This document shows positions 3,490 through 63,774 of a DNA stretch of 64,000 nt, piece by piece (position 1 is the first letter of the stretch; each line of letters starts with the position of its first letter). The translations under genes and the position numbers were made by a program. Origin of the DNA: a virus; the IMG/VR virus record IMGVR_UViG_3300045988_117192, positions 1 to 64,000 of that record; one strand, given 5' to 3'. Below the pieces are notes generated by a model, which searched no databases, was not told where the DNA came from, and worked only from the letters and a program-made list of their open reading frames with translations.

Positions 3490-3535
3490 TCTTCTACGGG
3501 GGAGCTAGATTCCAACTAGTACTCTCGTAGAAGAT
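3490..3535 (+). repeat. dispersed 19-bp motif copy 1: forward TCTTCTACGGGGGAGCTAG (3490-3508), a 7-bp spacer, and a degenerate reverse copy CTAGTACTCTCGTAGAAGAT (3516-3535)
   Basis: Direct read. Intergenic, after ORF 2941..3480. The two copies form an imperfect palindromic dimer. Confidence 0.9.
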
Positions 3536-3553
3536 TAAACTTATACTACAAAT

Positions 3554-4057
3554 ATGAGTGAACAATTTAAATTTCCTAATGGTGGCTATGAAGTTACTGT
3601 TCTTCGTAAACAAGATATTTTAGATTGCATTAATGATAACATAATAGATAAAGAAATCGCTTTAGCTATTGTTGAACAATGTGAAATAGATGCAGCTACT
3701 TGTCTTAGTCAAGGTCGTTGGACTGGACTTCCATATATTGCTAACGTTCAAGTTCCAGCACATATACAAGAGTTTCATAAAAAAGAAAATGAAGAACTTA
3801 ATGATATAGCTAAAGAAGAACTTGAAGGAAAGAAATATGTAATGTTTCGTAAAGAACTTGCAGCTGAATCTGCAAAACATGCTAAACAAGAACGTTTATA
3901 TCGTTATTTAGTTAGTATTGCAGTAACATCTAATAGAAAGCTTTATAAAAGACTTTGTGATGAAAAAGGTGAGTTTTATGCTCGTATTTTTCTTTATGCT
4001 TGTAAAAATATAACTGCTGTTGATAATGAATTTATAATGCTTGAAGATAATGAATAA
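3554..4057 (+). CDS. hypothetical protein (167 aa)
   Basis: ORF with typical coding density. No recognisable motif. Confidence 0.55.
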   Translation: MSEQFKFPNGGYEVTVLRKQDILDCINDNIIDKEIALAIVEQCEIDAATCLSQGRWTGLPYIANVQVPAHIQEFHKKENEELNDIAKEELEGKKYVMFRKELAAESAKHAKQERLYRYLVSIAVTSNRKLYKRLCDEKGEFYARIFLYACKNITAVDNEFIMLEDNE

Positions 4058-4661
4058 TAATAAACTTCTTATAGATAGTTTACTTCTCCTTGATGATACA
4101 GGTATGCCTCAACCTCCTACTTTAAAACAACTTATAGATAGAGATGTTAGAGAGCTTTATCGTAGAGATAAAACTAAAGAAAAGAAGATGTACATTGCTG
4201 AATGTATTGTTATTTATTATCTTGGAGATCCAAAATCACCTGCAAAACAATCAGGACTTAGTGATCCAGAAGCTCTTAAAATGGCTATTGAACAAGCAGG
4301 TCTTCCTAAAACTTATATTCCAGATGTTTTAGTTCTTCGTCTTATTAAAAGATATTATGAAGAAAATATTACTGAAGCTGGTAAAGTTGTAGAAAATATT
4401 CTTAAAGGTGTACATAACATTAATCTTAGTATTGATGTTATTAATAGTTTACTTAATGAAAAGCTTAAAAGTAATCCTACTCTAGAAGAAATTCCTATTA
4501 TTTTAGATATGATGAAACGAGTTAATGAACAAGCTGGTGCTATACCTGCTATGCTTAAAAAACTTGAAGAAGCTAAACAAAATCTTATGTATGAAAAAGA
4601 AACTGAAGTTAGTCGAGGTGGTCAAACAGTTCTTAGTTCAATGGACTCCGAAGCATATTAA
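4041..4661 (+). CDS. hypothetical protein (206 aa)
   Basis: ORF. Its start overlaps the upstream stop, which suggests translational coupling. Confidence 0.55.
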   Translation: MKIMNNNKLLIDSLLLLDDTGMPQPPTLKQLIDRDVRELYRRDKTKEKKMYIAECIVIYYLGDPKSPAKQSGLSDPEALKMAIEQAGLPKTYIPDVLVLRLIKRYYEENITEAGKVVENILKGVHNINLSIDVINSLLNEKLKSNPTLEEIPIILDMMKRVNEQAGAIPAMLKKLEEAKQNLMYEKETEVSRGGQTVLSSMDSEAY

Positions 4662-4857
4662 AACTACTATTATACATAAACTAGGAGGTTATACTGTAGA
4701 TGACTATAAAGCTTATGGTAATAAACGTTATATGGATGGTGTTAAAGATAATAATAAATGTAATAAAGTTTATCTACAACATATTGAAGCTATAGCTTAT
4801 GGTAAATCTAAACAAGAATGGATTAATACAATTCATGATGCTATTAAAAAATTATAA
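4591..4857 (+). CDS. small hypothetical protein; tandem paralog A (C-terminus YGKSKQEWINTIHDAIKKL)
   Basis: Paralogous to ORF 4879..5091 (…LGG…YGKSKQEWIxxIHxAIKxL). The start is uncertain. The ORF track begins it at 4525; the first plausible ATG in the homologous region is 4591. It overlaps the 3' end of 4041..4661. Confidence 0.45.
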   Translation: MKKKLKLVEVVKQFLVQWTPKHIKTTIIHKLGGYTVDDYKAYGNKRYMDGVKDNNKCNKVYLQHIEAIAYGKSKQEWINTIHDAIKKL

Positions 4858-4878
4858 TATTATAAAAACATATCAAAT

Positions 4879-5091
4879 ATGATGAAGAATATTAAAACTA
4901 AGCTTATACATCTTTTAGGTGGTATATCTCAAGATGAAGCAAAGAAATTTATTAATAATGCTTTTCATGATGGTGATGTATATGGTAGATATATTACTAA
5001 ACGTTATTTTATATCATTAGAAGAAAAATTATATGGTAAGTCTAAACAAGAATGGATTGACATGATACATAAAGCTATTAAAAGTTTATAA
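4879..5091 (+). CDS. small hypothetical protein; tandem paralog B (70 aa)
   Basis: Clear sequence similarity to the preceding small ORF. Both end in YGKSKQEWI(D/N)xIHxAIKxL. Confidence 0.55.
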   Translation: MMKNIKTKLIHLLGGISQDEAKKFINNAFHDGDVYGRYITKRYFISLEEKLYGKSKQEWIDMIHKAIKSL

Positions 5092-5092
5092 T

Positions 5093-6713: not shown

Positions 6714-7015
6714 TTATAAATAAAGAAGATTTTAAAAATGCTATTAAACATTTAATATATTTACTTTGTCTTATAAGTAGTTTAATTATAATATGTTTAG
6801 GTATAACTATACTTTATGATAAACATATTAGCCATAATAGCTCCCCCGTAGAAGAAATTCATAAAATAGATTCTGTTAAACTTGAAAATACTAAACTTAC
6901 TACTGAAATTAATGTTTTAGATAGTATTAAAAATAATAAAGTTAATGATGTTACGAAACTTAATAATGATAGTACTATTAAGTTATTCTATCAACTTATT
7001 AGCACAAAACAATAA
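6710..7015 (+). CDS. small membrane protein (N-terminal TM helix), 101 aa
   Basis: Hydrophobic segment LIYLLCLISSLIIICLGITILY. Contains a reverse copy of the dispersed motif (encoding SSPVEE). Overlaps the next ORF by 70 nt. Confidence 0.4.
   Translation: MIINKEDFKNAIKHLIYLLCLISSLIIICLGITILYDKHISHNSSPVEEIHKIDSVKLENTKLTTEINVLDSIKNNKVNDVTKLNNDSTIKLFYQLISTKQ
6838..6856 (-). repeat. dispersed motif copy 2 (reverse: TAGCTCCCCCGTAGAAGAA)
   Basis: Direct read. In-frame within ORF 6710..7015 (SSPVEE). Confidence 0.9.
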
Positions 7016-7286
7016 ATACTCTTCTACGGGGGAGCTAGATAGTGTACGTATTTCTTATAATGATTTACGTATAGTTAATAGTAAACTTATAGAACTTAAT
7101 TACACTAAGCAAATTAATAATAAATTATATAATATTATACGTAATGATAGCATAATTATAAATAATTATAAAAGTGTAAATGATAATTTTAATAAAACTA
7201 TAAATAAATATAAACGTCAACGTAATGTTGCTTTTATTACTTCACTTTGTGCTATTGTTGGTATAATTTTTTCTTTTGTAAAATAA
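6945..7286 (+). CDS. small membrane protein (N- and C-terminal hydrophobic segments), 113 aa
   Basis: N-terminal MMLRNLIMIVLLSYSINLLA and C-terminal VAFITSLCAIVGIIFSFVK. Contains a forward copy of the dispersed motif (encoding SSTGEL). Confidence 0.4.
   Translation: MMLRNLIMIVLLSYSINLLAQNNKYSSTGELDSVRISYNDLRIVNSKLIELNYTKQINNKLYNIIRNDSIIINNYKSVNDNFNKTINKYKRQRNVAFITSLCAIVGIIFSFVK
7020..7038 (+). repeat. dispersed motif copy 3 (forward: TCTTCTACGGGGGAGCTAG)
   Basis: Direct read. Forms a perfect 18-bp inverted repeat with copy 2; the two bound a 201-bp segment. Confidence 0.9.
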
Positions 7287-13696: not shown

Positions 13697-15016
13697 ATGC
13701 CTCTAGCCGATATTGATTTTGAAGGTGCTGCTCAACAAACAGGTAGTTCTGGTGCTGCACAATCTACTGAAAATGGTGGCAATAATAGTGCTACCCAAGA
13801 AGACATGACCCATCTTAATGGTAATAATCAAGAAGATATTACTTCTAAAGATGGTGCAAATAACAATAATGGTCAACAAGAAGGACAATCTGATGATACT
13901 GGTAAAGATGGTAATCAGAATAATCAAGATGCCAACAACTCTTCTACGGGGGAGCTAGCTGTTGGAGATACTCTTGAGTTTGAAGGTTCTACTTATACAG
14001 TAGATAAAGATGGAAATCTTGTTGATGATAAAGGAAGTATTTTTAAACAAGCTAATGAAGTTTCTGATTGGTTGAAATCTATGGATGTAGATGATAATAA
14101 CCAAGTAAATGGTGGTCTTAATCTTGCATCTATTCAAGAAGCTCTTGGTGTTACAGTTACAGATTCTGATGGTAAGGCTGTAGAATTTACAGATGATGCA
14201 GATGGCGTTAAAGCTTATGTTAATTCTGTAATTGATTTGAAGTCTAATGAACTTCAAACTGCTGCTATTAATAAGCTTTATTCTGATAATCCTTTATTAA
14301 AGCAATTTAATGATTATGTTCAACTTACTGGTACTCCTCGTGGTTTTGGTGAAATTCCAGATAGAAGTGGTATTCAAGTTGAAAAAGATAATGAAGCTCA
14401 ACAAGTAGCTATTATTCGTATGGCTGCTCAAGAATTTGGTAATAAATCTCTTAATGAGAATTATATTAAATATTTGCGTGATAGTGGTGGTCTTTATGAT
14501 GAAGCTCGTAATCAACTTCAAGCTTTAGCTGAAAAAGATATTGCTGTTCGTAAAGAAATTGAAACTAGAGCTGCTACTCAACGACAAGAAGAAGCTGAAA
14601 ATGTAGCTAATTATTGGAAGAATGTTAGTAATGTTATTGACGGCAGAATGATTGCTGGATATAAACTTCCTGAAAGTTTTACTAAGGAAGTTAATGGTCA
14701 AAAAGTAGTTATTACACCTAATGACTTTTATAATTATCTAAGTAAAGCAAGTGAACAAGATGCTGATGGTAACAGAGTTACAGGTTATCAAAAAGATTTA
14801 AGTAATCTAAGTGATGCTGATTATTTAAATCGTGAATTACTAGATGCTTGGCTTATGTTTACAGGTGGTACTTATAAAGATTTAATTGATATGGCTGTTA
14901 AAGAAGATAAAGTTCGTCAGTTAAGAGTTAAGTCAAAAGAACAACGTACTGCAAAATCTGTTAAGATTATAAGAAAAGCAAGTAGTAAAGCTGATATTAA
15001 TGATATTATTCTTTAA
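13697..15016 (+). CDS. scaffold-like acidic/coiled-coil protein, putative (439 aa)
   Basis: Sits between portal and MCP. The N-terminal ~100 aa are low-complexity acidic (N/Q/D/G-rich) and the C-terminal half is helical. Contains one in-frame forward copy of the dispersed motif (NSSTGELAV). Confidence 0.45.
   Translation: MPLADIDFEGAAQQTGSSGAAQSTENGGNNSATQEDMTHLNGNNQEDITSKDGANNNNGQQEGQSDDTGKDGNQNNQDANNSSTGELAVGDTLEFEGSTYTVDKDGNLVDDKGSIFKQANEVSDWLKSMDVDDNNQVNGGLNLASIQEALGVTVTDSDGKAVEFTDDADGVKAYVNSVIDLKSNELQTAAINKLYSDNPLLKQFNDYVQLTGTPRGFGEIPDRSGIQVEKDNEAQQVAIIRMAAQEFGNKSLNENYIKYLRDSGGLYDEARNQLQALAEKDIAVRKEIETRAATQRQEEAENVANYWKNVSNVIDGRMIAGYKLPESFTKEVNGQKVVITPNDFYNYLSKASEQDADGNRVTGYQKDLSNLSDADYLNRELLDAWLMFTGGTYKDLIDMAVKEDKVRQLRVKSKEQRTAKSVKIIRKASSKADINDIIL
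13940..13958 (+). repeat. dispersed motif copy 4 (forward)
   Basis: Direct read. In-frame in gene 13697..15016 (SSTGEL). Confidence 0.9.
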
Positions 15017-22817: not shown

Positions 22818-23240
22818 ATGAAAAGAGATAGTCTTGATAGTTTTGATGTTCTTCCTGAAGATATGATTAATTATCTTCGTTATAATGGTAGACATTTTAA
22901 TCATAAACTTTGTAGTTATGCAGTTTCTAGAATGAAATCCAAAGTTTCTTCTACGGGGGAGCTTAAATCAATCACTCCTATCACTAAAGAAGCTTTAGAT
23001 GCTAAACTAGATGATTATAATATAAAACTTAAAGAAAATCAACTTTATGATTATGTTTATGTAGCTAATATGTGTAAAGCTGATTTTCTAGGTAGTAGTA
23101 TTGATGATGAAAGACATCTTTGTTTATATGTAAAAGATGTTATAGATGATCCTGATGGTTATGATGGACTTGTATTTAATCGTTGGTATGCTGATATGTG
23201 TAGACAAGGTATTCCTATAGATTGGCATGAGTTTATTTAA
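22818..23240 (+). CDS. hypothetical protein (140 aa)
   Basis: ORF with an in-frame forward copy of the dispersed motif (VSSTGELKS). A terminator follows. Confidence 0.5.
   Translation: MKRDSLDSFDVLPEDMINYLRYNGRHFNHKLCSYAVSRMKSKVSSTGELKSITPITKEALDAKLDDYNIKLKENQLYDYVYVANMCKADFLGSSIDDERHLCLYVKDVIDDPDGYDGLVFNRWYADMCRQGIPIDWHEFI
22947..22963 (+). repeat. dispersed motif copy 5 (forward, 17-nt TCTTCTACGGGGGAGCT)
   Basis: Direct read. In-frame in gene 22818..23240. Confidence 0.9.
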
Positions 23241-23766: not shown

Positions 23767-23883
23767 CCAGTTTATCTTATAGCTTATAACTTAATCAGTC
23801 AATTATAAAGAATGGCTTAAATCGAAGATATACTATGAAATTCGTAATGTTTACTTGAATTTATAACTTTGACTAAAACTAAT

Positions 23884-23902
23884 TAGCTCCCCCGTAGAAG
23901 AG
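23884..23902 (-). repeat. dispersed motif copy 6 (reverse: TAGCTCCCCCGTAGAAGAG)
   Basis: Direct read. Intergenic, 50 bp upstream of gene 23951. Confidence 0.9.
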
Positions 23903-30374: not shown

Positions 30375-32212
30375 GATATAAATTAAAAAATGGAGGCAAA
30401 AGTCGTCCTAAAGCTTTATTTGGTGTAGATGGTGCGATTAATGCTGCTGCTACTTTAGCTGCTGCTGGTATGACAACTGCTGCTACTCTTAAAGCAGCAA
30501 ATCAGCAATCTAAAGCTGTTGAATCTTCTGCTAGAACACAAGCAGAAGCTATTAAAGCTCAAACTGCTAATAATACTGATCTTCAAAAAGAAAGTATTAA
30601 TTTTCAAAGACAAATAAATCAAGAAAATAGACAACAACAACAAGATATTCAAACTACTCTTCAACTTATGGCTGGTCAACAAAATATGAATGATAGGCTT
30701 AAAGCTACTCAAGAAGTTGCTAAATATGGTGGTAGACCTAAAAGAAAAAAGTTGTCTAAGATGACTTCTGATATACCTTCCTACGGGGGAGCTAGAATAC
30801 CTTTCCGTGTTACAGATGGTGGTGGAGTAATTCCAATTCAAATAAATGATGCAGGTTATGGTTTGTATGAACTTTATGGTAATGATCATGACCATTATCA
30901 CAAGACATCTGGAGGTAAATACAAATCAGGTGTTGGTATTAAATTTGCTGATGGTAGTACAATAGAAGGTGAAGGAAATCAAAATACTAAACAAGGTGAA
31001 TTACTTTATGTAACACCTTATGATAATATGTTTATATCTAAACATGATATTAAAGGTTTTAATCCTGCAGAAGCTGTTAATGAAGGTATGAATCCTCAAT
31101 ATGCTTTTGATATTCAACAACAACTTAAAGCTATTTATGGTATTAATGATGATGGTAGTAAGATTGATAAATCATCTTATAAACAAATGGCTAAATGTGG
31201 AGGACATTATAAACTTAAATGTGGTGGTCGTATTAAAAGAGTTAATGGAGGTTTTTGGCAAAATCATGCAGGAGCTACTTATAATGCTGTTGGTAATTTA
31301 CTTGGTGCAGGTATTACAGCTATAGGTAATGGTATTGCTGGTCGTAAACTTTCTAATGCTTATAATAATGCTGGTAATATATTAGCTGATGCTTATTCTC
31401 AAATGCATGGAATAGATTTATCTGAAATAAGTAAAAGTGACTATACTCCAGCTCATGTTATGGCAATTGTTAGTAATGCAGATACTAATATAAATCCTCA
31501 ATTAGAACGTATTCGTAGAGATGCTGCTGCTCAAACTAAGCAAGTAAATAATTCAACTATGAGTTCTGCTGCTAGACAACAACGTCTTGCTGGAATTAAT
31601 GATAGAAGTTTACAACGTGCTACTGAGCAATATGCTTATAAACAAAATGAAGATCAAAAAATTCAACAAGCTAATGCTGAACGTATTCAACAAGCTAGTG
31701 CAACAAATGCTCAACTTGATTCTCAAGCAAATCAAGAATATGCTAAATCTAGACTTGCTTTAATGCAATACAATAATGATATTGAAAATAGTAAGATTGC
31801 TGGAGCTGCACAAGCTAGAGCTGATGCTATGACACAAAGTAGTACAGCTAGTGCTACAGCTTGGCAAAATTCTATGAATGCTATAGGTTCTGCAATAGCT
31901 AATACAGGACAAGGTTTTGCTTCATCTTATGAAGCTATTCGTAAATCAAATGATGATTTTGCTAATACTTATGCTGGATTGGGTAATGAACAACAAGTTA
32001 AAGCTGCATTACTTCGTTATGAAAGAACTGGAGATGATAGTTATATTAATAGTTTGTTAAATAGTAATATGATTAGTGATTCAGAAAGAGTTGCTTTAAA
32101 TAGAGCTAAAGCTAATAAAATTAGAATAAAAAGAAATAAATTAAGAGCTACTCCAGGTAATATTTTACCAGATTATACAAATAATAGTAGTAATCCTAAT
32201 TATTATGCTTAA
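30371..32212 (+). CDS. tail structural protein, putative (613 aa)
   Basis: ORF overlapping upstream by 4 nt (ATGA). Contains an in-frame forward motif copy (PSYGGAR) and Q-rich helical segments. Confidence 0.5.
   Translation: MRYKLKNGGKSRPKALFGVDGAINAAATLAAAGMTTAATLKAANQQSKAVESSARTQAEAIKAQTANNTDLQKESINFQRQINQENRQQQQDIQTTLQLMAGQQNMNDRLKATQEVAKYGGRPKRKKLSKMTSDIPSYGGARIPFRVTDGGGVIPIQINDAGYGLYELYGNDHDHYHKTSGGKYKSGVGIKFADGSTIEGEGNQNTKQGELLYVTPYDNMFISKHDIKGFNPAEAVNEGMNPQYAFDIQQQLKAIYGINDDGSKIDKSSYKQMAKCGGHYKLKCGGRIKRVNGGFWQNHAGATYNAVGNLLGAGITAIGNGIAGRKLSNAYNNAGNILADAYSQMHGIDLSEISKSDYTPAHVMAIVSNADTNINPQLERIRRDAAAQTKQVNNSTMSSAARQQRLAGINDRSLQRATEQYAYKQNEDQKIQQANAERIQQASATNAQLDSQANQEYAKSRLALMQYNNDIENSKIAGAAQARADAMTQSSTASATAWQNSMNAIGSAIANTGQGFASSYEAIRKSNDDFANTYAGLGNEQQVKAALLRYERTGDDSYINSLLNSNMISDSERVALNRAKANKIRIKRNKLRATPGNILPDYTNNSSNPNYYA
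30776..30795 (+). repeat. dispersed motif copy 7 (forward variant CCTTCCTACGGGGGAGCTAG, with a 1-nt insertion)
   Basis: Direct read. In-frame in gene 30371..32212 (PSYGGAR). Confidence 0.85.
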
Positions 32213-38300: not shown

Positions 38301-41300
38301 TAAACAAGAAGCTAGACGTATTGCTGAAAAGTTTATGACAAATGATGGTAGTAAAGGTAATGTAACTGCTTCTGAATTTTTAGATGCTTTAGATGTATTT
38401 AATTTTTCTAATAGAACTAATCAAAGTCTTTATGAATATGTTACAAATATAATTGATATGTATAAAATGAGTCGTAATCAGCAAAGAGCTGAAGACACTC
38501 TAGAAGATGAGACAAGTTCTACAGAAAATCAAGAACAGATTACAGACACTGAAAATCAAAACTTGAATAATCCACCACAACCAAATAAAGAAAACGACAC
38601 AGACCAAGCAAATGGGCAAAATCAACCTATAGCACCATCATCAGAGCAACAAGAAAACCAAAACAAAGGTAAAAAGAGTAATGTTACATTTAATATTAAT
38701 AATAAAGGTAATATTGTATCTATTAAACATACTGGTAAATCCAATTCTTCTACTGCTAAAGTTATAGATAATGGAGATGGAACATATACTCTTGATATTA
38801 GTTCTAAACCTAAAAATGCACAACTTAGATATGTTATAGGAGGCTTATTTGATGGAAGTGTTGATTTAATTGATGTAGATGCTGATTGGGTTATTAGTAA
38901 AAATCCTATAGTTAAACGTAAAGGTAATGATTATATTATAATAGAAAAAGGTAAAATTAGAACTACTAAATATAATAATATAGATGAAGAAGAATATCAA
39001 TCTTTTAAGGAATTAGTTGACAGTGATGAAAATTTTAAAAATGATTTATTAAATAATCCTGATAGTGTTAGAACTACTGTTCTAGAAGTTTTAGATACAA
39101 CAGATGAAGATAAAGCTAATAGCTATATAGAACGTTATCTTGATGAAAATAAAGTTGATTCTAACTCCCCCGTAGAAGAAAGTGATGATACTTTTTTAAG
39201 TGATGGCCAAGATACTAATCAAAGTACTCAAGGTACTCAAGATACTAATCAAGGTACTCAAGAAGGTTCTAATAATCAAACACCACAAAACTCTTCTACG
39301 GGGGAGCAAGAGTCTAACTCTAGGATAAGTCCTACTACTACTCCTGCTACAACTAATGAACCTGGAAGTACAAATACTCCTTCTACTAGTACTACTAATA
39401 ATAAAACTAATGAAGATTTAGATGAGATTAGAAGAGGTATAGCTCAAACATTTGGAAAATATATTCCAGATATGAGAGTTAAAGATATAAATTTTGATGA
39501 AATTAGTAATAAAGTTGAAAAAGAACTTCTAGATATTAAAGATAGAGTTGGTTTAAGTGAAGAAGAAATTAAAGTTGAAGTAGCTAGACAAAAGCAAATG
39601 TTGAAAGATGCTCATGATAAACTTATGAGTTTACAAAGTAAACTTGCTCAAAATGGTGCTAATTTAGCTTTTGCTTCTAAACTTGAAGAAGTTGATACTA
39701 CTGATTTTAGTTTAATGTTTACTAATGCTGTGGAAGCTTTTATGTCTGAATATAAAAAGATAGTAGTTACACCTACAGTTGATGGTAGACAAGTTGTTAG
39801 ATTAGAAGATATTTTAAGAATTTGTAATAATGTTTATCCTACATCTGATATTAGTGTTGCTAAATCGATGTATAATGTTATTTATAATTATCTTAGAAGT
39901 CCTATTGGTCAAGCTAAATATTTAACTATTGATTTAAATAATGGTAATAAAGTATTAGATAATATTACTAAAACTACTGAACAACTTCAAAAAGAAGTTG
40001 ATGAACAATATGATCCTTTTAGAGTTAATATTAATGATTTTATAGAACAGGCTTTAATAAGTAATGATGATGTTAAAGATGAATATTTTAAAGCTTTAAA
40101 TTCATTGAATACAGGTGATGAACTTGATATGCTTGCAACTGATAGAGAATTAATATTTAGACATGGAAATGTTACTATAGGTAATATGCCTAAACCTAAA
40201 ATTAAAGGTGATACTTTTATTCAAATAAATGAAGGTTGGATTACCGATGTTAAATTAGATAATAAAGGTGATGTTGTAAGTTCTCTTAAACCTATATTTG
40301 AAGATATATTTTTAACAGATACTAGTGCTCATAAAGCTTTAAGAGAATTATTAATAAAAAATGCTATACTTGATAGAGGAAGTGAAAATTATAAAACTGA
40401 ATTTGATAGTTTAGTTAAATCTTTTAGTAATAATTTTGTTATTAAACAATTAGTTGAACAAGCTAGAAAAGATAAAGCTAAAGGTGAACATAAAATATTT
40501 ATTAATGATGCCAGTGGTATAATAGACTATGATAGATTATTAAATCATCTTACTAAACTTTGGAATTATACTCAAGCAGGAAATAATGCAAATAGTAAAA
40601 CCGAAGCTGAAGATAACATTAGAATTAGTTTAAATAGATGGTTTAATAATTTATATAAAACTTATAATACTACTTATAATATAACTAAAGATAGTAAAGT
40701 CAAAATTACAAAATTAAATGAAGGTCAAATTAATAGAGCTGTAGAAAAAGATGATTTAAATACTGTAGAAAATTATGATAAATTACCTTTAGTTAGAGAT
40801 GCTGTAGCAAAAAAATTTAAATGTAAATTAGGTATTGTTGAAACAAAAGAAACATATATTGATATAGCTGGAGATAATGCTTTTAATGTAAAAAAATGGA
40901 CAGCTAATAGTACATTAATTGCTGTATTTAGTAAAAATGAATTACCTGATTATATTAAAGCTATTGGTGTAAAATTATCTGAAGCTAAAAGTTTAGGTAA
41001 TAATAGTATAGTAGGTTCTATAGCTAGAGCTTCTATGATACATTTACAAGAAACTTTTCAAGAATATATAGATAAAAAAGGTTTTGGTGATATAAATAAA
41101 ATAGAAGATGTAATAAGAAGTATTATAGCTATTGTAGGTGATGAAGATAGAATACCTTTATTTAGAGCTATTTCTGGTAAATTTTTTATAGAAGACATAA
41201 ATGCTCCAAATAGTAATGCTAGAGGTATAAGTATAGTTTATAAAGGTAATAACAGAGAATTTAGACGTTTTAGAATTTATACTAATAATAAATATAATAA

Positions 41301-46000: not shown

Positions 46001-49000
46001 CTGTAGCTTTGTCTCATTATTTTAATTTTAGACAAGATGAAGATGGTTATTATAGTATAGAACTTAAAAAACTTCCAAATGATGAAATTTCTAAAGAACC
46101 AAAGTTCAAAGAAGGTATGTCTAATACTAAAGGTTATAAATTTTATCATTTAGGTTCTAATGGTACTGTTTTAGAAAAAAATGGAGAAGGTTTTAAACTT
46201 GCTGGTAATGTGTTTCATAGTAATAAGTTTACTTTAGCTGTTGAAAGTGCAGATGGTACTATTAGTAAAAAAAATTATCTAGATGAAATTATAAGTAATG
46301 ATTTAGATAAAAGATATGATGGTTCAATCAATCTTCTCTACGGGGGAGCTATGAGGATAGTAGCTACTCTAGAAGAAGATGGTAATTATAATGTAGAAGA
46401 TGTTATTTTTAGTGATCTTCAACAAGAGAAAATAAATAAAGCTCTTTCAGATTTTCTTACAGAATATCAAAAACAAGCTATTAATAAAATAGATAGTTAT
46501 AAAAACTTTATTCAAGGAGTTGATATTACTAGTGAAAATATAACAAGTTTTGCTATTAATAATCTTCTAATGCACTATAATTATGATGAATTATTTGAAG
46601 GTAATACTAAATTTTATAAAGATAGTCAAACTATTTTAAAACGTGCTAAAGAATATCAAGGTTCTGGTGTACCTTATGGTATTGCTAATTATAATATTTT
46701 TAATAATGAAGATTTATCTGATGTAACAAAACATTCATTTCTTAATAATGGCACTATAGAAGAAACTAGTAAAGATTCTGAAGGTAAAGAAATAATTAAT
46801 AAAGTTAGTATTCAAGATTTATTTAAAGGTACTTTATTTGAAGGTACTACTCAACGATATGGTTTTAGAGGTGTTACCATTAAAAATACTCAACGTACAA
46901 ATGTATCTGCTCTTGAAGAACTTGTTAAAAAACTTGTAAAAGATTCAAAAATAGATGAAGAAGCTGCTAGAGAAATTCTTTTTGGTCCTATTGTAATTAA
47001 AAATGGTAAAATAGTTAGAGATAAAGAAGGAAATCCTGTTCGTAAAGGTGGTTTTACTGAAACTAAAGTTAATGATGCTCAATCTTATATAACTGTTCAA
47101 GAATGGGTTCGTCGTATTTCAGCTCGTGGACAACTTCAACGCTATCTTCCTTTAATAAAAAAAATAATTGAAGCTGATAAAAATCCTGATATTAAGCTTG
47201 ATGCTAAGACCATTAAAGAATTTGTTCAAGTACAAAAAAATTTTTATTATGATATGCATTATGATAAAAATTATGGTATTTATGTTCCTCGTCAAATTAA
47301 AAATGCTGAATTTGTACTTATACCTAGTCTTATAAAAGGTACACAACTTGAATATGTGTATAATATGATGAGAGAAGGCAATATTGACCAACTTAATACT
47401 ATTGAAACTAGTAAAGCAGCTAATGAAGAAGTTCTTACTATTTGGGATAATGATGCTAAAATTAAAGGTTTAGATGGTGTTGTTGATGAAGATGAAATAG
47501 CTAAAGCTACTAGTAAGTATGCTAGACAACTTGAAGAAAATGCTCAAATATATTCTTATAATAATTTATATACTCAGCAAGAAACACCTCAACATATGAA
47601 TGCTGAAAATAAAGCTGGTATTCAACTTATGAAGAAATTGGTTGATAATCTTCCTGATGATGATAGTGATCTTGGTAAACTTAAAAAAGAATATTTTAAA
47701 TTATTTACTCGCAATATAGAAGAATCTTTTACTGATTTACTTGATAATTTTGAAATTCCTTATGATGAAAATGGTAATATTGAATTAGATGATCTTAATC
47801 ATATTAAAAATGTTAATCTAAAAGTTTTTTATAATAAACTTAAAGAAGAATTAATGCGTACAGGAATTGATAGTAACTTAAATGATTATGTTACTATTCC
47901 TGAAGGTTCTAGTATACCTAGTATGCCTGCTGCTCTTATGAACAATGTTCTTACTAAGTTTGAATCTGTTGTTCAAAGTTTATTTAATAATAATATTACT
48001 AGACAAAAACTTCCAGGTTTTCATGCTGCTCAAATTACAAATGTTGGTTGGAGTCCTTTAAATGAAACTATAGAAGATGTTAGTTACAATAAAACTTTAA
48101 AATATCATCCTGAAGGTGAACCTTATATTGAAGTAATGCTTCCAGCATCATTTTTAGGAATAAACAAAAATGATGAGCATTATAAAAATATGACAAATAA
48201 AGAAATTATAGCTGAACTTGAAGCTAAAGGTTTAGATATGATTATTGGTTATCGTATTCCTACTGAAGGCAAACAATCAGTATGTAATATGAAAGTTGTT
48301 GGTATAACTGATGATGCTTTTGGTTCTACTATTGTTGTTCCTGATGATTGGGTTTCTCAAACAGGTTCTGACTTTGATATTGATAGTGTTTATGGTATTC
48401 AATTTGAAACTTATAAAACTAAATCTGGTGAAGTATTTCCTGTAGAATATAAGGAAGCTAAAAATAGAACTAAATATGATTGGTTTAATTATATTCTTAA
48501 ATTTGCAAAAGATGATAGTTTAGATCCTAATGTTAAAAGTAAAATAGTTGATGCTAAAAATAAAATAAAATCTGAACTTCAAACTGAATTAAATAAATTA
48601 CAAAATGAAGAAAAAGAAGTTTGGAATAAATTTGATAAAAATGCTCAAAAGATTATTAAACAACGTCAAGATAAAATAACTCAAGCTATAAAAAAACAAG
48701 GTCTTGAAGGCGAAGATGCTTATCATTATAGACTTACTAAACTTATTAGTTTTTTAAATAATACTAAAAAAACTGCTAAAAATAAAAATACTAATTTTAT
48801 TAAAATAATTGATGAAACTATACCTACTATTAAAGCTATTGATGATTTTATAATAACTCAAGAAGGTAAATATAATGAAAAAAGTAAAAAAAGAATAGAT
48901 AGTATTCTTAATGAAAAACTTGATACATTTAATAATGCTGCTAAAAATGGTGGACTTCTTACATTAGATGACTATCTTAAATCTGAAAATGATTTAAAAG

Positions 49001-52000
49001 CTAATACTAGAAAAGCTAGAAATAATAAACTTCTTAGTATTATGAAAGAAATTCTTTCAGATCCTAAAACTCTTGAAGAAAATCTTTCTCGTTCTAATTA
49101 TGATGATTTAGTTCGTGCTTGTAATGCTGTAATGAATCCTAATGTTAAAGCAGCTAGAGATGGTAGAAGTCCTTATAATGTATTTGACCAAATAGATTAT
49201 CAAGAAGATGCGATGAGTGGTGCTAAACTTAAAGCTTTTAGTGTTACACTTGATACTTTTTGTTCTGTTTGTAATAAAGTTAGACCAACATTAGAAAAAC
49301 CTGTTTATATTGTTTATAATACAGATGATTATAAAAATCCTCAAGCTATTTTAGATAGATTTAATGCAGGTAAGCTTAAAGATAAAGCTAAAACTTTTGC
49401 TATAAAACATAGTACTTATGGGTGGAGCAAAGATAATAGAAATGTAGCAGGTAAAATTCTTACAGCTTATTCTTCTCAAACTACAGCATTTATTCTTGAT
49501 GCTATCAAAGAAGGAGCTATACCTAATGTTAATGATTATACATTTTCAGTATTTAAAACTCTTGCTAATATAGGTACAGATTATAATACTTCTGTTGCAT
49601 TTATTATGCAACCTGGTATTGAAGAAATTGTAAAAGCTAATAACAGTAATAAATCTGTTTATTCTACAACTTCTGGTAATCCTATTCATCAAGCTATTAG
49701 AACTATTGCTAAACGATTAGAAATAAATGCTGAAGATAATGTTCCTATTACAACAGTACTTGCTTCTATTAATAAAAAATATAATAAAGAATTTAATAAA
49801 ATATTTAAACAACAAGGTGATGATACTATTACTATTAGTTTAAAAGAAGAAGATACTAAAAATCTTCCTATAATAGCTTCTATGCTTGTTGATAGACTTA
49901 AAAACACAGGTAAGTTTAGTAAAAGCTCCCCCGTAGAGAAGTCTTTGTTTGATTTAGGTGTTATACTTAGTTTTAATAAATTACATGATACAGCTAATAC
50001 TATAGGTGATATAGCTAGATGTTGTAATCCTGATAGATTTGGTGCTAAACAAACTGTTTTTGAAACTCGTCAAGTATTTACTAGTATAGATCAAACTATG
50101 TTTAATCAAGAAGTTTCTCCTGATACTGGTAGTATTATTAGACAATTAAGAGAACCAGTACTTTCTGTTAATGGTAAACATATATTAGCATCTATATATC
50201 CAGGCAGTGATGATATTAATAGTGATAGTAATGGTATAATTAATAATTTACTTAGAACTAACAGAATTGCTGAAAGTAGTTATCCATCATTATATGCTTT
50301 CTTAAAATATGCTTCTGCTACTAGTATTGTTGTTGCTAAAACAATATTTGATACGCAAGATGATGGTTTTGTAAAACTTATAACAGATTTTAAAGATGTA
50401 CTTAATGGTTATAATCAAACTATTAATGAAGATACATATAATGATTTACAAAAATATGTATTAAGTTCTTTATATAAACAAGTTCCTGCAATTAGATATC
50501 TTGTTAATGTTAGAACTAATGATAAAGGAGAAATTGAGATAACTCAAAATATTCCTACAGAAATCGATAAAATAGAAGAAGCTTCTAAAGCAGAAATTAC
50601 TAGAATTTATGGTTATGAACGTGATAATAGTATTTCTATTATTAATAAAGAAACCTATAAAGACGATAATGGTAAAACTAAAACTAAAACTATAATTACT
50701 AATTTTGAAGTAAAAGATATTAATAATCCTACAAAGGATGAAATGGAACTTTATGAACAACTTTCTCCTGCTCAAAAAGTTCAATTTATAAAATCTAATT
50801 TTAGTAATGCTGGTATATTTAGTTTACTTAATGTTAGTCTATTTAATAGTACTGCTAGAGGTAAATGGGTTGGTATGCAAACTTTAGAATATAAAGAACA
50901 AAATATAAATCCTAATGTAGTTTATGCTGAATTTAGAAAAGCTTTTTATAATAATAATCCTTTAATTGTTTCTGCTGCTATTGATTTAGTTAAATATGCT
51001 GCTCAAGTTGAAGGAATGAGAATGACTGCTACAGCTATTAATAAAATTATAGATAATAAATGTCTTGTACAACCTTTTGGTAGAAATGGATTAGGTTTTG
51101 TAGATAGTATTAAACAAACTATGAATGATATCAAAAATGGTAAAGGACATTTTGGTTATAATTTAGATGAAAATAATGATGTTAATTCTGAAGTAGAAAC
51201 TCTTTATGAAAATTATCTTAGAAGTCATCCTGAAACTAAAGGTATTAAAACTGTTTATTTAAGTAAAAGAACTCAAAGTAAATATGGATTATATAAACAT
51301 GATTTTGGTACTTATTATTTAAAGGTTAATGATGATAAGGATTCTCCTGAAGATAATCTTAAAGCTTTTAATCAAAGATTAGCTAATATAGGTATTAAAA
51401 CTTATCTTCCATTAAGTGATAAATACAAGACTAATAAATATATTAGATTTAGAGATAGTAAAAGTAATAATTTATACAGAATAGTTGAAGGTGATGGATA
51501 TATTGTTTTATATCCTTTATCTAAGCTAGAAGCTAATGAAAATAGTGAATGGTCTGCTAATGAAGATAATAATAGAGGTATTCTTAGTAAAAGAGCATAT
51601 ACTGTATTAACTAATGATTTTGCTAAAGTAAAAGATAGTCAAGAATTTACACATAACTTTATAAAAGAACGTATGGAACATTATAAAGAAACTGGTGAAA
51701 AGAAGACTTTCTTTTATAAAGAACGTAAGAATTATAATAGAAATGTTCCTGCTGCTGATTTTAGTATTGAAAAAGAAGCTGAAGATGGAGGTTCTATGGC
51801 TATTCTTCGTCAGCAAATAATTAATCATTTTAAAAATCCTCTTGCAGGTAGATTATTTGTTAAAAATGGTGCTTTAACTAATTATATATTTAGTCCTGGT
51901 GTAGAAAATGGTAGTGAACAAACTATTCATTTTGGTAATAATGATACTAGACGATTTATATTATCTATTCCCGATAATTTAAATAAAGTAGAAAAACAAT

Positions 52001-57360: not shown

Positions 57361-57373
57361 TGTAGTTTAGTAA

Positions 57374-57392
57374 TAACTCCCCCGTAGAAGAG
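57374..57392 (-). repeat. dispersed motif copy 12 (reverse: TAACTCCCCCGTAGAAGAG), followed by a truncated forward copy CTCTTCTAC at 57411-57419
   Basis: Direct read. Intergenic, immediately after the 4761-aa gene. Forms a terminator-like hairpin. Confidence 0.9.
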
Positions 57393-57419
57393 TTGTGTAT
57401 AATCTACCAACTCTTCTAC
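57385..57419 (+). terminator. hairpin (12-bp stem GTAGAAGAGTTG / CAACTCTTCTAC) built from a reverse motif copy plus a truncated forward copy
   Basis: Lies 25 bp after the giant-gene stop. Perfect inverted repeat with an 11-nt loop, followed by TTAATAATAAAT. Confidence 0.5.
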
Positions 57420-59725: not shown

Positions 59726-59733
59726 ACATTTAA

Positions 59734-59804
59734 TGTTCTATGGTGTAATGGTAGCACTAGAGTTTTTGATTCTCTCAGTCATCGTTCGAATCGGTGTAGA
59801 ACAA
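59734..59804 (+). tRNA. tRNA-Gln (anticodon TTG), putative
   Basis: Manual cloverleaf: acceptor TGTTCTA/TAGAACA (7/7), D-arm GTGT-AATGGTA-GCAC, anticodon arm AGAGT-TTTTGAT-TCTCT (U33, A37), variable CAGT, T-arm CATCG-TTCGAAT-CGGTG. Discriminator A. No encoded CCA. Confidence 0.6.
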
Positions 59805-60859: not shown

Positions 60860-60871
60860 AATAATTTAAAT

Positions 60872-61579: not shown

Positions 61580-62160
61580 TTTATTTTAGATTTACGTTTG
61601 AGATTTAAAATATTAATAGTTTTACGTTGTTGTTCTTCTTTTTCAAGTTCTTCATTAGTTTTATTTATTTCAGCACAATCTTTTTTATAAAGACTAAGCA
61701 TTTTATTAAGATTACCTTTATAAACTTTTTTAAGAGGAATACAATATGTATCTCTTTCTATTTCTTCAATTAAATCTTTATCTATTAATTCTTTTATACT
61801 TTTAGATATACTAGCATCTGAAAGTTCAAGAAACTCTTTAAGTTCATTACGAGTTATTTTTACAATATTTGTATTATTATTTAATTTATATAATATAGTA
61901 ATATAAACTCCTAAAGCACTTTTACTACCATTATATAAACTTATTAATGTATCTATTCCAACTCTAACTGAATTACTTAGATAATAAATTGTTTTAGTAT
62001 ATTCTAAGTTATTATCATCTTTATCTTTAACTTCCATAGTAGAAACATCTTGTATATATTTATCTATAGATTTTCTATTATGTATTATCATATTACTAAT
62101 ATCATTATCTGAAATTTTTGTTATATTGCAAAAATAGAAAAAAACTTTTACTTTTTTCAA
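61576..62160 (-). CDS. hypothetical protein, possible winged-helix DNA-binding protein (194 aa)
   Basis: ORF overlapping dut by 4 nt. The K/E-rich segment [22 protein letters not shown] resembles a wHTH. Weak evidence. Confidence 0.4.
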
Positions 62161-62382
62161 AAAATGAAAAGAAAATCTTTAGAATTTTAGAAAATCATAG
62201 ATTAACTTTTTCAAATTATGAAAATAAAAAACTCGCTAAGTACTTGATACTCAACGAGTTATAACAAAAATCCCAGTCCTTATAATATATATAATATAAT
62301 AAATATAATAAGGTACATCTAATACTGCAAATATAAGAATAAGATTAATAATAACAAAGAGTATAGAATAAAATTACATAAC

Positions 62383-62401
62383 TCTTCTACGGGGGAGCTA
62401 G
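62383..62401 (+). repeat. dispersed motif copy 13 (forward, canonical)
   Basis: Direct read. Intergenic, to the left of the small membrane gene 62458..62706. Confidence 0.9.
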
Positions 62402-62457
62402 AGTGCAACTATTAATTCTAACAAAAAGAATATAATTAGCTACACTCTAGTTTTACT

Positions 62458-62706
62458 TTAATACGTTCTATCCATAATATCTTTAATTAAAGACATTAAT
62501 TGACGTACACCAATAGGTATATCTTCATCTTCTTCATTATAATCAACTCTAATTTTATTATATTTATTTTTTATCGTAAAAAGTCTATCCTTATATATTT
62601 TATCATCTGTTGGAATTTTAGAAGTATAACATTTAGTAATATATAAATAAAATCCTAATAAAATAATAATAGCTAAAATAATTATAGTAGAACAAATATA
62701 AATCAT
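62458..62706 (-). CDS. small membrane protein (82 aa)
   Basis: N-terminal TM helix IIILAIIILLGFYLYI. The gene is bracketed by an inverted pair of the dispersed motif (62383-62401 forward, 62763-62781 reverse). Confidence 0.45.
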   Translation of the reverse strand: MIYICSTIIILAIIILLGFYLYITKCYTSKIPTDDKIYKDRLFTIKNKYNKIRVDYNEEDEDIPIGVRQLMSLIKDIMDRTY

Positions 62707-62709
62707 AAT

Positions 62710-63774
62710 TTAAGCAATTTTTAAATTAACAGCTGAAACTAGTGCTTTATTCATATTTCTGTTAGCTCCCCCGTAGAGAAGTGAATCAACACGTTTTTCA
62801 TTTTCTAAATTAGCAACATTAGAATAAAAACCTGTAACAGCATTATAAGCACCCCAAGCAGTACCTGCAATATCTTTTTGACCAATACCATCCATATAAT
62901 ATTCAAACATATTAGTAATTTGATTTATTTTACGTTGACTGATATTAGTATGTTCCATAAGAAGATACTCACTATTAAATAATTTTTTATAACCATTTTT
63001 GTTATCATAATCAAGAAGAGCTAATCTTTCAGCTTCAGTAAGTTGTAAATCAGCAATATATTTCATTACTTCTTCATCAGACATTTTAATAGTTAGAAGA
63101 CTATCATAAAGTTGTTTAGCATTATTAGCATGTTCACAAGCTATTTTTAAAATTTCACTACCACGTTCAATTTTATCTCTAGCAGATTTAGTATGTTTAA
63201 TACGAATATATGAATGAGCACTATTTAAAGCACTATTTAACATATTAGTACAAATAACTCTAATAGGAGAAAATAAAATATTTATAGAAGAACTACCATC
63301 ATGAGAATTACTAAATACAAGATAATTATCTACTACATCTTTTCCTACTTTAGTAGTATAAGGTAATTTAGCACTAACAAATATTTTATGTCCATAACCA
63401 AATTTACCAGCTTTATCCCATTGAGCTTTATTAACTCCAATAGCATCATTAAAGAAATTAAAAGCTTCAATATTTTGAATAACTTCATATTTATCTTTAA
63501 CTAAACCTAAAGGTGTATTAGTATCTGTACGATAAGTAGCATAAGCTTTAGGACAATCTCTATAAATATAACCATCTTTAGCAAACTCACCACCTAATTC
63601 ATTAAATTTATTATTACCGTTAATACTAAAAGGCATACGAGCAACTAAATCACATTTATCCACATAAAAATCAAGTCCAGCTTTTTGCATAACTTCTTGA
63701 GCTGTAGTACAATCTGAAACATCTTTTCCTATACCACTAGCCCAAGGTAAACCGTTAATATTATATTTACTCAT
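62710..63774 (-). CDS. hypothetical protein (354 aa)
   Basis: Long minus-strand ORF. An in-frame motif copy near the C-terminus encodes LLYGGAN. No confident family assignment. Confidence 0.55.
   Translation of the reverse strand: MSKYNINGLPWASGIGKDVSDCTTAQEVMQKAGLDFYVDKCDLVARMPFSINGNNKFNELGGEFAKDGYIYRDCPKAYATYRTDTNTPLGLVKDKYEVIQNIEAFNFFNDAIGVNKAQWDKAGKFGYGHKIFVSAKLPYTTKVGKDVVDNYLVFSNSHDGSSSINILFSPIRVICTNMLNSALNSAHSYIRIKHTKSARDKIERGSEILKIACEHANNAKQLYDSLLTIKMSDEEVMKYIADLQLTEAERLALLDYDNKNGYKKLFNSEYLLMEHTNISQRKINQITNMFEYYMDGIGQKDIAGTAWGAYNAVTGFYSNVANLENEKRVDSLLYGGANRNMNKALVSAVNLKIA
62763..62781 (-). repeat. dispersed motif copy 14 (reverse variant TAGCTCCCCCGTAGAGAAG)
   Basis: Direct read. In-frame near the 3' end of minus-strand gene 62710..63774 (LLYGGAN). 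Confidence 0.9.

Follow-up and report, generated by a model that had tools for sequence, protein, structure and literature searches.

The 64-kb stretch of DNA considered here (positions 1 to 64,000 of the IMG/VR virus record IMGVR_UViG_3300045988_117192; hereafter, the window) comes from a crAss-like phage and contains, both between and within genes, dispersed copies of a 19-bp motif, TCTTCTACGGGGGAGCTAG, rich in guanine and cytosine (GC). The genes that carry or adjoin copies include those for a spanin-like protein, the protein encoded upstream of the major capsid gene, tail ring protein 2, a 2547-amino-acid (aa) protein, a 4761-aa RNA polymerase (RNAP)-like protein and a DUF932 protein (Table 1). 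The window has ~27% GC overall (20%-33% across 2-kb windows). In GenBank it is most closely related to the uncultured pig-gut phage cr271_1 (82% nucleotide identity around the capsid gene), a member of the Obtuvirinae within the Intestiviridae. Among all sequences the closest is IMG/VR contig 3300045988_099931, which is ~94% identical over 28.5 kb and is referred to below as the 94% relative.

The 11-mer core of the motif, CTACGGGGGAG, occurs 14 times in exact form in the window (0.07 expected), and a search with the whole 19-mer at up to three mismatches gave 13 matches, compared with none in 100 dinucleotide shuffles. The claim of a first-pass annotation, made from the letters alone, that the motif recurs non-randomly was thus borne out, and its coordinates for the copies agree with ours to within 1-2 nt. 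Eight copies lie on the plus strand and six on the minus strand (density ~1 per 4.5 kb), and they account for 14 of the 16 GGGGG runs in the window. No copy was found in the ~1.4-kb divergent control region (1500-2940). Further copies are present in the 94% relative, in parts of its genome beyond the window, and the motif is therefore not a feature confined to this assembly, a caveat that had been attached to it. Two partial copies reported at 3516-3535 and 57411-57419 are also real: each (3516-3534, minus strand, and 57408-57419, plus strand) lies inverted to the neighboring full copy, at 3490 and 57373, respectively, and pairs with it into a hairpin.

According to a mechanical list of open reading frames (ORFs), ten of the 14 copies lie in ORFs and four are intergenic. 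The earlier count of nine coding copies was therefore one short, and the accompanying observation that every host ORF is preserved holds for all ten. The encoded peptides are SSTGEL/SSTGEQ (four copies), (S/L)YGGA (three) and SSPVE(E/K) (three). This restriction to a few frames, already noticed in the first pass, arises because TAG interrupts half of the frames, namely the third forward one and two of the three reverse ones; the three peptides correspond to the three TAG-free frames.

The copies at 46334, 49922 and 62762 share a variant, TTCTCTAC in place of TCTTCTAC. The first two, both within the RNAP-like gene, had been described as sharing a private CTC insertion that pointed to gene conversion between them. 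Neither part of this proposal can be upheld, since the variant is of the same length as the consensus, the third copy carries it as well, and the orthologous pairs in cr271_1 and ctcc615 mismatch each other.

Table 1. Copies and partial copies of the motif in the window, with their setting, the peptide encoded and the corresponding sites in related genomes.
Position	Strand	Form	Setting	Peptide	Corresponding sites
3490..3508	+	full copy, TCTTCTACGGGGGAGCTAG	intergenic, 10 nt past stop of ORF 2941-3480; 5' arm of hairpin		orthologous in cr271_1, ctcc615, cr8_1
3516..3534	-	degenerate inverted partner, TCTTCTACGAGAGTACTAG (read on - strand)	3' arm of 3490 hairpin		inverted partner also in cr271_1 (3546-)
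6837..6855	-	1 mismatch	ORF 6710-7015, antisense to gene; divergent pair with 7020+	SSPVEE	orthologous in jaberico
7020..7038	+	exact	ORF 6945-7286 (spanin-like); divergent pair with 6837-	SSTGEL	orthologous in 5 genera
13940..13958	+	exact	ORF 13697-15016 (gene upstream of major capsid gene)	SSTGEL	orthologous in 5 genomes including p-crAssphage
22947..22965	+	2 mismatches	ORF 22818-23240	SSTGEL	degenerate in cr271_1, where a + copy ~1 kb off stands instead
23883..23901	-	1 mismatch	intergenic, 50 nt upstream of tail ring protein 2 gene (23951-24637)		orthologous in ctcc615, cr271_1, cr8_1
30777..30795	+	3 mismatches, core exact	ORF 30371-32212	SYGGA	orthologous in cr271_1; + copies ~200-300 nt off on map in cr8_1 and jaberico
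39161..39179	-	1 mismatch	2547-aa gene, antisense; divergent pair with 39292+ in low-complexity linker	SPVEE	cr271_1 - copy ~2.5 kb away
39292..39310	+	1 mismatch	2547-aa gene; divergent pair with 39161- in low-complexity linker	SSTGEQ	orthologous in cr271_1 and cr8_1; + copy ~200 nt off on map in p-crAssphage
46334..46352	+	variant, TTCTCTACGGGGGAGCTAT	4761-aa RNAP-like gene	LLYGGA	LYGG coded TAC-GGG-GGN in 6/6 Intestiviridae genomes
49922..49940	-	variant, exact core	RNAP-like gene, antisense	SSPVEK	orthologous in 5 genomes (SPVE or LPVE)
57373..57391	-	2 mismatches	intergenic, 13 nt past RNAP gene stop; hairpin arm		identical placement in cr271_1, ctcc615, cr8_1
57408..57419	+	partial copy, CAACTCTTCTAC	pairs with GTAGAAGAGTTG of 57373 copy; 12-nt inverted match
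62383..62401	+	exact	intergenic in minus-strand gene block, antisense to transcription		orthologous in cr271_1, ctcc615
62762..62780	-	variant, TTCTCTACGGGGGAGCTAA	near 3' end of DUF932 gene (62710-63774), sense	LLYGGA

Codon usage in the window is extremely biased: GGT makes up 78% of the glycine codons and GGG only 0.7%, and the shares are similarly small for ACG (0.8% of threonine), CCC (1% of proline), TCC (0.5% of serine), TAC (4.4% of tyrosine) and GAG (4.4% of glutamate). Third-position G or C is nearly absent in all of the long ORFs (CCG 0%, CTG 0.2%). Any GC-rich word is therefore both conspicuous and costly to encode in this DNA. The motif is written in the rarest codons of the genome (GGG, ACG, CCC, TCC and TAC), which are used at every copy; for the peptide in question, such a choice of codons has a probability of 1e-7 to 1e-8 at each site.

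Comparison with the 94% relative revealed no difference within the motif at the eight shared copies (0/152 positions), compared with 56 differences at 640 positions in the 40-nt flanks (Fisher p = 9e-6). In more distant relatives the flanks diverge and gain or lose bases, while the motif stays. The spanin-like protein (6945-7286) provides an example: across 25 homologues the T and G of the STG tripeptide are invariant and the S is nearly so, although the tripeptide sits in a linker that carries indels and otherwise varies in length.

A conserved protein motif was considered as the cause of this pattern and rejected, since it predicts varied, ordinary codons, whereas rare codons are used and four of the 14 copies are non-coding. 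The first-pass annotation had raised the prospect of orthologues that encode the same residues by unrelated codons; the codons found in the orthologues are not unrelated. We conclude that the motif is under purifying selection at the nucleotide level, including inside essential genes.

The motif was next compared among six genomes of the Intestiviridae, and all six hold 13-31 copies, each in a dialect of its own genus. Phage cr271_1 (17 copies) has the same dialect as the window, while the other words are YYTTCTACGGGGGWGSTMR in the mouse phage ctcc615 (16 copies), ACATACCTTTTACGGGGSGGCTAGA in the human phage cr8_1 (28 copies, 27 of them unique), CTCCTYTACAGGGGWK..TTACA in the cultured Rudgehvirus jaberico (Crudevirinae; 26 copies) and CCATCCTCYACGGGGRGT in p-crAssphage (31 copies). 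The core YYTCYAC(G/A)GGGG is common to the whole family, and the genus-specific flanks are uniform inside each genome, every copy being written in the dialect of its own genome. A common core with genus-specific, uniform flanks is what co-evolution of a cis-element with its trans-acting reader would be expected to produce.

When all sites were mapped onto the coordinates of cr271_1, at least ten proved to keep both position and strand across the two subfamilies. They lie in the genes for primase, SNF2 helicase, UDG and RNAP (two sites), in the giant RNAP-associated gene, in the gene upstream of the capsid gene and in the lysis cassette, and the peptides LYGG, SPVE and SSTG are kept at them. 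The motif is at least as old as the common ancestor of the Intestiviridae. In two cases there are signs of turnover, i.e., loss of a copy accompanied by a same-strand replacement 1-2.5 kb off (22947+ and 39161-).

These data make it very improbable that the motif is a selfish or neutral repeat without function for the phage, whether comparable to Rickettsia palindromic elements (RPE), Correia elements, repetitive extragenic palindromic (REP) sequences and the REP doublets called REPINs, or mitochondrial GC clusters, or spread by gene conversion. The motif does stand out as islands of high GC content against an AT-rich background, and it occurs in either orientation and in frame within genes; its inverted doublets resemble REPINs or terminal inverted repeats, and one dialect per genome is what concerted evolution would produce. 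Against this stand the retention of position and strand across two subfamilies, the lack of visible flanking target duplications, and the absence of a transposase in Pfam and PHROGs scans of ~30 small and medium ORFs of the window (the largest ORFs and the rest of the genome lay outside these scans). At the 62762 site, moreover, three relatives encode the string SLL(Y/W)G(G/N/S)AN in ordinary codons, at the same length and free of the motif; this copy was therefore made in place by substitution and not by insertion. The same site and the conserved positions also speak against the RPE- or Correia-type mobile repeat proposed in the first pass, and the same-strand exclusion zones described below, together with the 0/152 substitutions, indicate selection at each site.

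Two related mechanisms were also rejected. Inversion of the segments between inverted copies (invertons) would destroy ORFs: in silico, inversion of 39161-39310 and 46334-49940 created 6 and 40 in-frame stop codons, respectively, other pairs also break ORFs, and the 94% relative is collinear with the window over all of the inverted pairs that it covers. Nor do the copies mark recombination or mosaic boundaries, as the identity profile against the 94% relative runs through the motif sites without a breakpoint. Where BLAST alignments begin at 13940 or 62762, the reason is a conserved domain beside a variable linker.

The distribution of the words also bears on whether a host factor might read them, as an uptake-type sequence, as a host Chi site (AddAB/RecBCD) or as a copied host operator. 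We consider this very improbable, too. A Chi-like role would suit a G-rich word that occurs approx. once per 3-4.5 kb on both strands, and the Gam-like nuclease inhibitor annotated in cr271_1, cr8_1 and p-crAssphage implies that host end-processing nucleases matter to these phages. In IMG/VR, however, the exact 16-mer was found in 99 stretches, mostly on ~90-kb contigs, and among the representative genomes of 185,579 species the exact 18-mer was found in only ten stretches, nine of them on contigs of ~80-97 kb (seven on one contig of 93.8 kb), which we read as phage contigs binned into metagenome-assembled genomes. No bacterial chromosome with multiple copies of the exact 18-mer was present in that set. 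Furthermore, the 19-29-bp word differs between genera of one family, and crAss001 (host B. intestinalis) and jaberico (host B. cellulosilyticus) carry different words although both hosts are species of Bacteroides, which makes a host reader unlikely.

The arrangement of the copies was analyzed in the same six genomes. These share ancestry, the search patterns were chosen post hoc, and the genic and intergenic calls come from a crude ORF finder; the values given below should be read with this in mind. The strand counts are close to even (8:6, 11:6, 9:7, 14:13, 13:13 and 13:18), and orientation is independent of the local genes (70 sense and 60 antisense among 130 pooled copies). Approximately 70% of the copies lie inside genes; the 39 intergenic copies (15 sense, 24 antisense) represent a ~3-fold enrichment.

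The orientation of successive copies alternates beyond chance in all six genomes (p = 0.0008-0.03), most clearly in cr8_1 (22 of 27 neighbor pairs, p = 0.0008). Underlying this alternation is an exclusion between copies on the same strand: the minimum same-strand gap is 2.1-3.9 kb, compared with a random median of 150-600 bp (P <= 0.01 per genome). In the pooled data, no same-strand pairs were observed below 1 kb, two at 1-2 kb and five at 2-3 kb, with 19 expected in each of these classes. Opposite-strand pairs were in excess at short range, with 18 observed and 6 expected below 300 bp, and 31 observed and 20 expected below 1 kb; opposite-strand copies are often 28-270 bp apart. Of the intergenic copies, 41% (2% in the null model) have an inverted partner that measures 10 nt or more and is no farther than 130 nt away, as have ~10% of the genic ones. 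Beyond the exclusion zone a hard-core null left little extra regularity, none of it significant except on one strand of p-crAssphage.

Taken together, conservation, dialects and layout lead us to favor, tentatively and with rather less than even confidence, the view that the motif would be a co-evolving, cis-acting DNA signal, read in a strand-specific manner by a phage-encoded factor. The signal appears to be strand-polar, and both strands appear to need tiling. It would therefore serve a transaction of the DNA that involves a single strand, or proceeds in a single direction, across a few kilobases, and its phage-encoded reader would require copies of its own on each strand, spaced a few kb apart. 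Candidate activities are (i) site-specific nicking, (ii) strand-specific priming or loading of replication-recombination enzymes, and (iii) a Chi-like 'self' signal. Copies sit wherever the DNA tolerates them, i.e., in intergenic regions or else in stop-free coding frames, upon which they impose SSTG, LYGG or SPVE. The intergenic inverted pairs and partial partners could form hairpins of 10-21 bp, with a possible secondary role in RNA or in cruciform DNA. Among the alternatives listed in the first-pass annotation, these observations agree best with the one in which the motif is recognized by a phage-encoded protein that binds, nicks or modifies DNA.

Several points weigh against this polar signal. 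The Pfam and PHROGs scans of ~30 small and medium ORFs of the window, from which the largest ORFs were excluded, yielded no candidate reader. Known phage nick motifs lie on one strand only (PMC3517423), and nicking of both strands at points separated by 28-130 bp would carry a danger of double-strand breakage, despite which tight inverted pairs are enriched. At 1-2 kb opposite-strand pairs, too, fall short of expectation (8 observed, 20 expected), so that part of the spacing is independent of orientation, and in some genomes strand coverage is patchy, with gaps of up to 38 kb. As little regularity remains beyond the hard exclusion zone, the strand pattern could be generated in the absence of any polar function by selection against short direct repeats, a deletion hazard in these phages, relatives of which encode a RecT-type annealing protein and a PD-(D/E)XK exonuclease. 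Finally, the P values of the six genomes are not independent (shared ancestry), and the patterns were picked after the data had been seen.

The main rival, to which we assign a modest chance, is that the motif is a non-polar site for a phage-encoded protein that binds double-stranded DNA (an architectural protein, a silencer or a global regulator, with sites comparable to stoperators, parS, or the sites of Noc or SlmA). Alternation would then be a by-product of selection against close direct repeats, and the inverted doublets would stem from cooperative binding or simply from a shortage of intergenic DNA able to accommodate the motif. The independence of orientation from transcription, the length and asymmetry of the word with its genus-specific dialects, the partial independence of spacing from orientation, the enrichment in intergenic DNA and the ability of the hard-core null to absorb most of the remaining regularity are all compatible with such a site. 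p-crAssphage is reported to persist as a phage-plasmid (10.1101/2024.03.20.585998), a lifestyle that could make use of a global silencer or of partition sites.

A non-polar site, however, predicts equal exclusion in both arrangements, whereas below 1 kb same-strand pairs are missing and opposite-strand pairs exceed expectation. The deletion hazard of 19-bp repeats should also fade gradually with distance, and same-strand pairs are absent below 1 kb and still reduced to 2 of the 19 expected at 1-2 kb. In addition, the scans of the window brought up no conserved candidate for a DNA-binding protein. An IHF-like reader was rejected, as the 'IHF-like' genes of the window encode the crAss tail ring protein 2. 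The sole helix-turn-helix candidate (61576-62160) is a weak, MarR-like winged-helix match below the Pfam cut-off that is not conserved in the 94% relative. The region of this ORF (61576-62317) adjoins the copy at 62383 and has no counterpart in that relative (alignment gap 61585-62317).

The inverted arrangement of many intergenic copies raises the question of a function in RNA. The hairpin at 3490 folds as plus-strand RNA with -26.4 kcal/mol (z = -4.0), and that at 57373 has z = -3.8. It is conceivable, but highly unlikely in our judgment, that inverted copies serve as RNA-level elements by pairing in polycistronic transcripts, locally or over kilobases, into duplexes of 19-26 bp that would act as RNase III processing sites, stability elements or small-RNA targets. 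Besides the two hairpins, the frequency of inverted partners among intergenic copies speaks in favor of this, an inverted pair yields a stem from either transcribed strand, and in cr8_1 antisense intergenic copies often appear to lie roughly 10-30 nt past stop codons. Most copies are genic, however, and few of these are partnered; cleavage in the mRNAs for RNAP, primase or helicase would be harmful; single genic copies are conserved as strongly as paired ones; and ordinary hairpin-plus-T-run terminators stand away from the motif hairpins. Terminator-like sites of the window were located at 13328, 19408, 59907, 60239 and 62260, none of them at a motif hairpin, and an intrinsic terminator was therefore rejected; the single terminator match that coincides with a copy (49926-49941, inside a gene) picks up no more than the 6-bp stem of the motif itself.

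Within a single copy, the G strand can form a small hairpin, CUCUUC-UACG-GGGGAG, which folds in this genome. Stem positions 1-4 always pair, trivially, as a pyrimidine tract faces an invariant G run. For positions 5-6 the mutual information (0.07-0.09, compared with 0.01-0.02 when shuffled) is weak and confounded by lineage, and the GGGGCGG variants of cr8_1 break the stem. A UNCG-tetraloop hairpin was accordingly disfavored, as it is not kept in other dialects and shows no clean covariation. The simple RNA stem suggested in the first pass is likewise disfavored by the independence of orientation from transcription and by the loss of the small hairpin in other lineages. The motif has no match in Rfam, and the only tRNAs in the window (tRNA-Asn and tRNA-Gln at 59654-59805) are unrelated to it.

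Promoters of single-subunit phage RNAPs are of similar length and copy number, occur as lineage dialects at orthologous positions and contain a G run. This resemblance suggests that the motif could be a start site of RNA synthesis for the giant crAss-type RNAP or for the primase, with a promoter or primer start at the G run, in the manner of T7-group promoters (...TATAGGGAGA), N4 hairpin promoters or the mitochondrial OriL primer site. We regard such a start site as rather unlikely. The small hairpin of the G strand and the apparent position of sense intergenic copies in cr8_1, ~20-75 nt upstream of start codons, agree with it, as does the requirement of the phi14:2 virion RNAP for single-stranded or denatured DNA in vitro (10.1101/2020.03.07.982082). 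No early promoter motif is known; the same preprint describes early transcripts as lacking a common motif, and sigma-70-like middle promoters in another subfamily only (10.1101/2020.03.07.982082). On the other hand, 60 of the 130 copies are antisense (24 of 39 among the intergenic ones), the 1.4-kb divergent control region of the window has no copy, the genes for RNAP, helicase and primase contain both orientations, and the small hairpin is not kept in cr8_1, its covariation being weak and confounded by lineage. A sigma-70-type promoter was rejected, as no enrichment of such promoters was found at the motif.

The uptake signal sequences (USS) and DNA uptake sequences (DUS) of Haemophilus and Neisseria are short asymmetric words that occur on both strands, spaced, confined to certain frames in genes, as inverted hairpin-forming pairs between genes and in lineage dialects. 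In its layout the motif resembles these most closely, sharing the use of both strands, the spacing, the tolerated frames with recurrent peptides, the inverted intergenic pairs and the dialects, whereas its phage context is closest to nick-site motifs or T7-type promoters. The likeness to uptake sequences drawn in the first pass thus holds for the layout only and not for a host element, given that the 18-mer occurs almost exclusively on ~80-97 kb contigs. The motif belongs to a virus and not to a competent bacterium, it is absent from bacterial genomes, it is longer (19-29 bp) and ~3-4 times less dense, and with no uptake machinery involved it must serve another process.

The words at phage nick sites (T5/BF23, phiKMV-like and tf/LUZ24-like phages) are 7-19 bp long, and phage tf has 14 copies in 46 kb, i.e., ~1 per 3.3 kb (PMC3517423). 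In the tf/LUZ24 group nick positions are similar among relatives and the word is slightly different, for which co-evolution with a nickase was proposed; the function of the nicks is unknown even in T5 (PMC3517423). The present motif is similarly a multi-copy consensus with similar positions and a differing word among relatives. It differs from nick motifs in occupying both strands about equally, where all known ones occupy one, and in the enrichment of tight opposite-strand pairs.

Compared with the promoters of T7, T3, SP6 and N4, which are ~19-23 bp long, conserved, present in 15-30 copies, sometimes within upstream genes, and found as phage-specific versions at orthologous places, the motif shares the G run at the presumed start and the possibility of a small hairpin on one strand. 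Such promoters are co-oriented with genes, however, while 46% of the motif copies are antisense, and crAss-like phages encode a two-barrel RNAP for which no promoter is known.

The stoperators of Cluster A mycobacteriophages are asymmetric 13-bp operators, ~25-35 per genome, situated between as well as within genes and recognized by a single phage protein. The motif is likewise an asymmetric sequence dispersed through a phage genome in both kinds of DNA, but stoperators follow transcription and belong to temperate phages with a known repressor, whereas the orientation of the motif ignores transcription. Chi is a G-rich polar word, mostly genic and present approx. once per 4-5 kb, that serves as a species-specific 'self' mark for a helicase-nuclease. 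The motif is likewise G-rich, of similar density and mostly genic; Chi, however, is only 5-8 nt long, is read by the host and is over-represented in the host chromosome, while the motif is 19-29 bp long, specific to phage lineages and, as a full word, absent from bacterial genomes. With RPE, Correia elements and yeast mitochondrial GC clusters it has in common that short GC-rich repeats are tolerated in both orientations, and in frame, in an AT-rich genome. It is much shorter than these, has no insertion footprints, can arise by substitution in place and keeps its positions across subfamilies.

The motif therefore fails a defining feature of each known family that could be tested. Full-text searches, which included the literal strings of three dialects and covered the literature incompletely, returned no published description of it, and it is not mentioned in the preprint on the culturing of p-crAssphage (10.1101/2024.03.20.585998). 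It would be an addition to the general kind of dispersed cis-acting genomic recognition words, with a real chance of being categorically new for viruses.

Some observations concern the surroundings of particular copies. In p-crAssphage, a tight divergent doublet of the motif lies ~270-540 bp upstream of each of the two annotated RepL-like replication initiator genes, gp43 and gp88 (L118 28077/28175 and L119 45745/45867, the latter corresponding to 95745/95867 of p-crAssphage). The independent circular assemblies of cr8_1 and of IMG/VR 3300045988_056679, which belong to different genera, have a 55-nt terminal overlap at the same orthologous inverted doublet (window 62383-62780), and in cr8_1 the overlap ends exactly after the G run of the motif. 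Two more contigs, both of them fragments, terminate at 8 and 26 nt from a motif copy, giving altogether four contig ends within 32 bp of one. These ends are ambiguous and may represent physical ends or nicks, inversion of the spacer, variation in poly-G length or chance (rough estimate 0.004).

Region 6093-7286, which directly precedes the terminase gene, probably represents a lysis cassette composed of an endolysin-like ORF (6093-6713), a small ORF (6710-7015) and the spanin-like ORF (6945-7286), the last two of which each carry a motif copy. The spanin-like protein (106-113 aa) has an N-terminal lipobox (LLSC/S) and a C-terminal membrane helix and resembles a unimolecular spanin. The idea that this spanin-like ORF, which holds the best-conserved site, encodes a small terminase subunit (TerS), with the motif as a pac site, was rejected on account of this lipobox and helix.

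The ~1.4-kb non-coding region between divergent gene blocks contains two adjacent AT-only palindromes, at 2410-2468 (28-nt arms, 100% complementary) and 2470-2536 (32-nt arms, 94% complementary), which could mark a replication origin or a bidirectional terminator. A word of ~27 nt, AAATCTTGGNNAGTAGTGGNTGAGG, is present four times (690, 718, 1599 and ~1650; regions 690-744 and 1599-1684) and flanks a relatively GC-rich minus-strand ORF (870-1478; 202 aa) that has no Pfam match and in which 12-nt units are repeated in tandem at 1355-1454. The two GGGGG runs of the window that do not belong to the motif (1676 and 1705) are located in this area as well. The DNA polymerase gene is annotated in two pieces ~400-600 bp apart in cr271_1 (83336-86033) and in the Crevaviridae genome cr127_1 (L120 12271-15205), which suggests an intron, an intein or another interruption.

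The Intestiviridae motif is absent from cr127_1, which contains instead ten copies of another GC-rich word of 45 bp (..TAATGGCCACAAGGGCGAGAGGTGTTCCGAAAT..), on both strands (e.g., at 11356, 28698/28871 and 42040/42232) and including three inverted pairs 170-560 bp apart. The CCACAAGGGCGAG part of this word loosely resembles the CCACGGGGAG core of p-crAssphage. In crAss001 (Steigviridae) the 9-mer CTTCTGGAG occurs 27 times on both strands (0.36 expected), its orientation alternates in 19 of 26 neighbor pairs, and its same-strand spacing is also non-random (P = 0.002). The 9-mer is a near-palindrome that contains a BpmI-type site, CTGGAG. By analogy, these two genomes, one of the Crevaviridae and one of the Steigviridae, suggest that the phenomenon may extend beyond the Intestiviridae.

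On this basis one may envisage, as an unlikely but far-reaching extension of the polar signal, a tagging of genomes throughout the Crassvirales by lineage-specific, strand-polar words that tile both strands and are read by a hallmark crAss enzyme. The words may be YYTCYACRGGGG with its flanks in the Intestiviridae, the 45-bp GGCCACAAGGGCGAGAGG in a Crevaviridae genome and CTTCTGGAG in crAss001. A candidate reader would be the giant QDE-1-like RNA polymerase, which needs single-stranded templates and could start primer or antisense RNAs, or load the replication-recombination machinery, at these sites. If this were true, the words would supply the cis-element that crAss-phage biology has so far lacked, and viruses would be shown to possess a novel type of 'self' signal.

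Among the viruses of the human gut the crAss-like phages rank first in abundance, and their promoters, replication origins, packaging signals and mechanism of persistence are largely unknown. The signal described here is sharply bounded, is present in the prototypical crAssphage and in cultured relatives, has stood in the same places since the ancestor of the family, and is so strong that the genes for polymerase, primase, helicase and structural proteins have to accept rare codons and fixed peptides. Its dialects may serve as compact lineage markers and are relevant to the recoding or engineering of these genomes. Exact sequences and coordinates are now at hand for experimenters, and identification of the factor that reads the signal, if achieved, should uncover a central step in the DNA metabolism of crAss phages.

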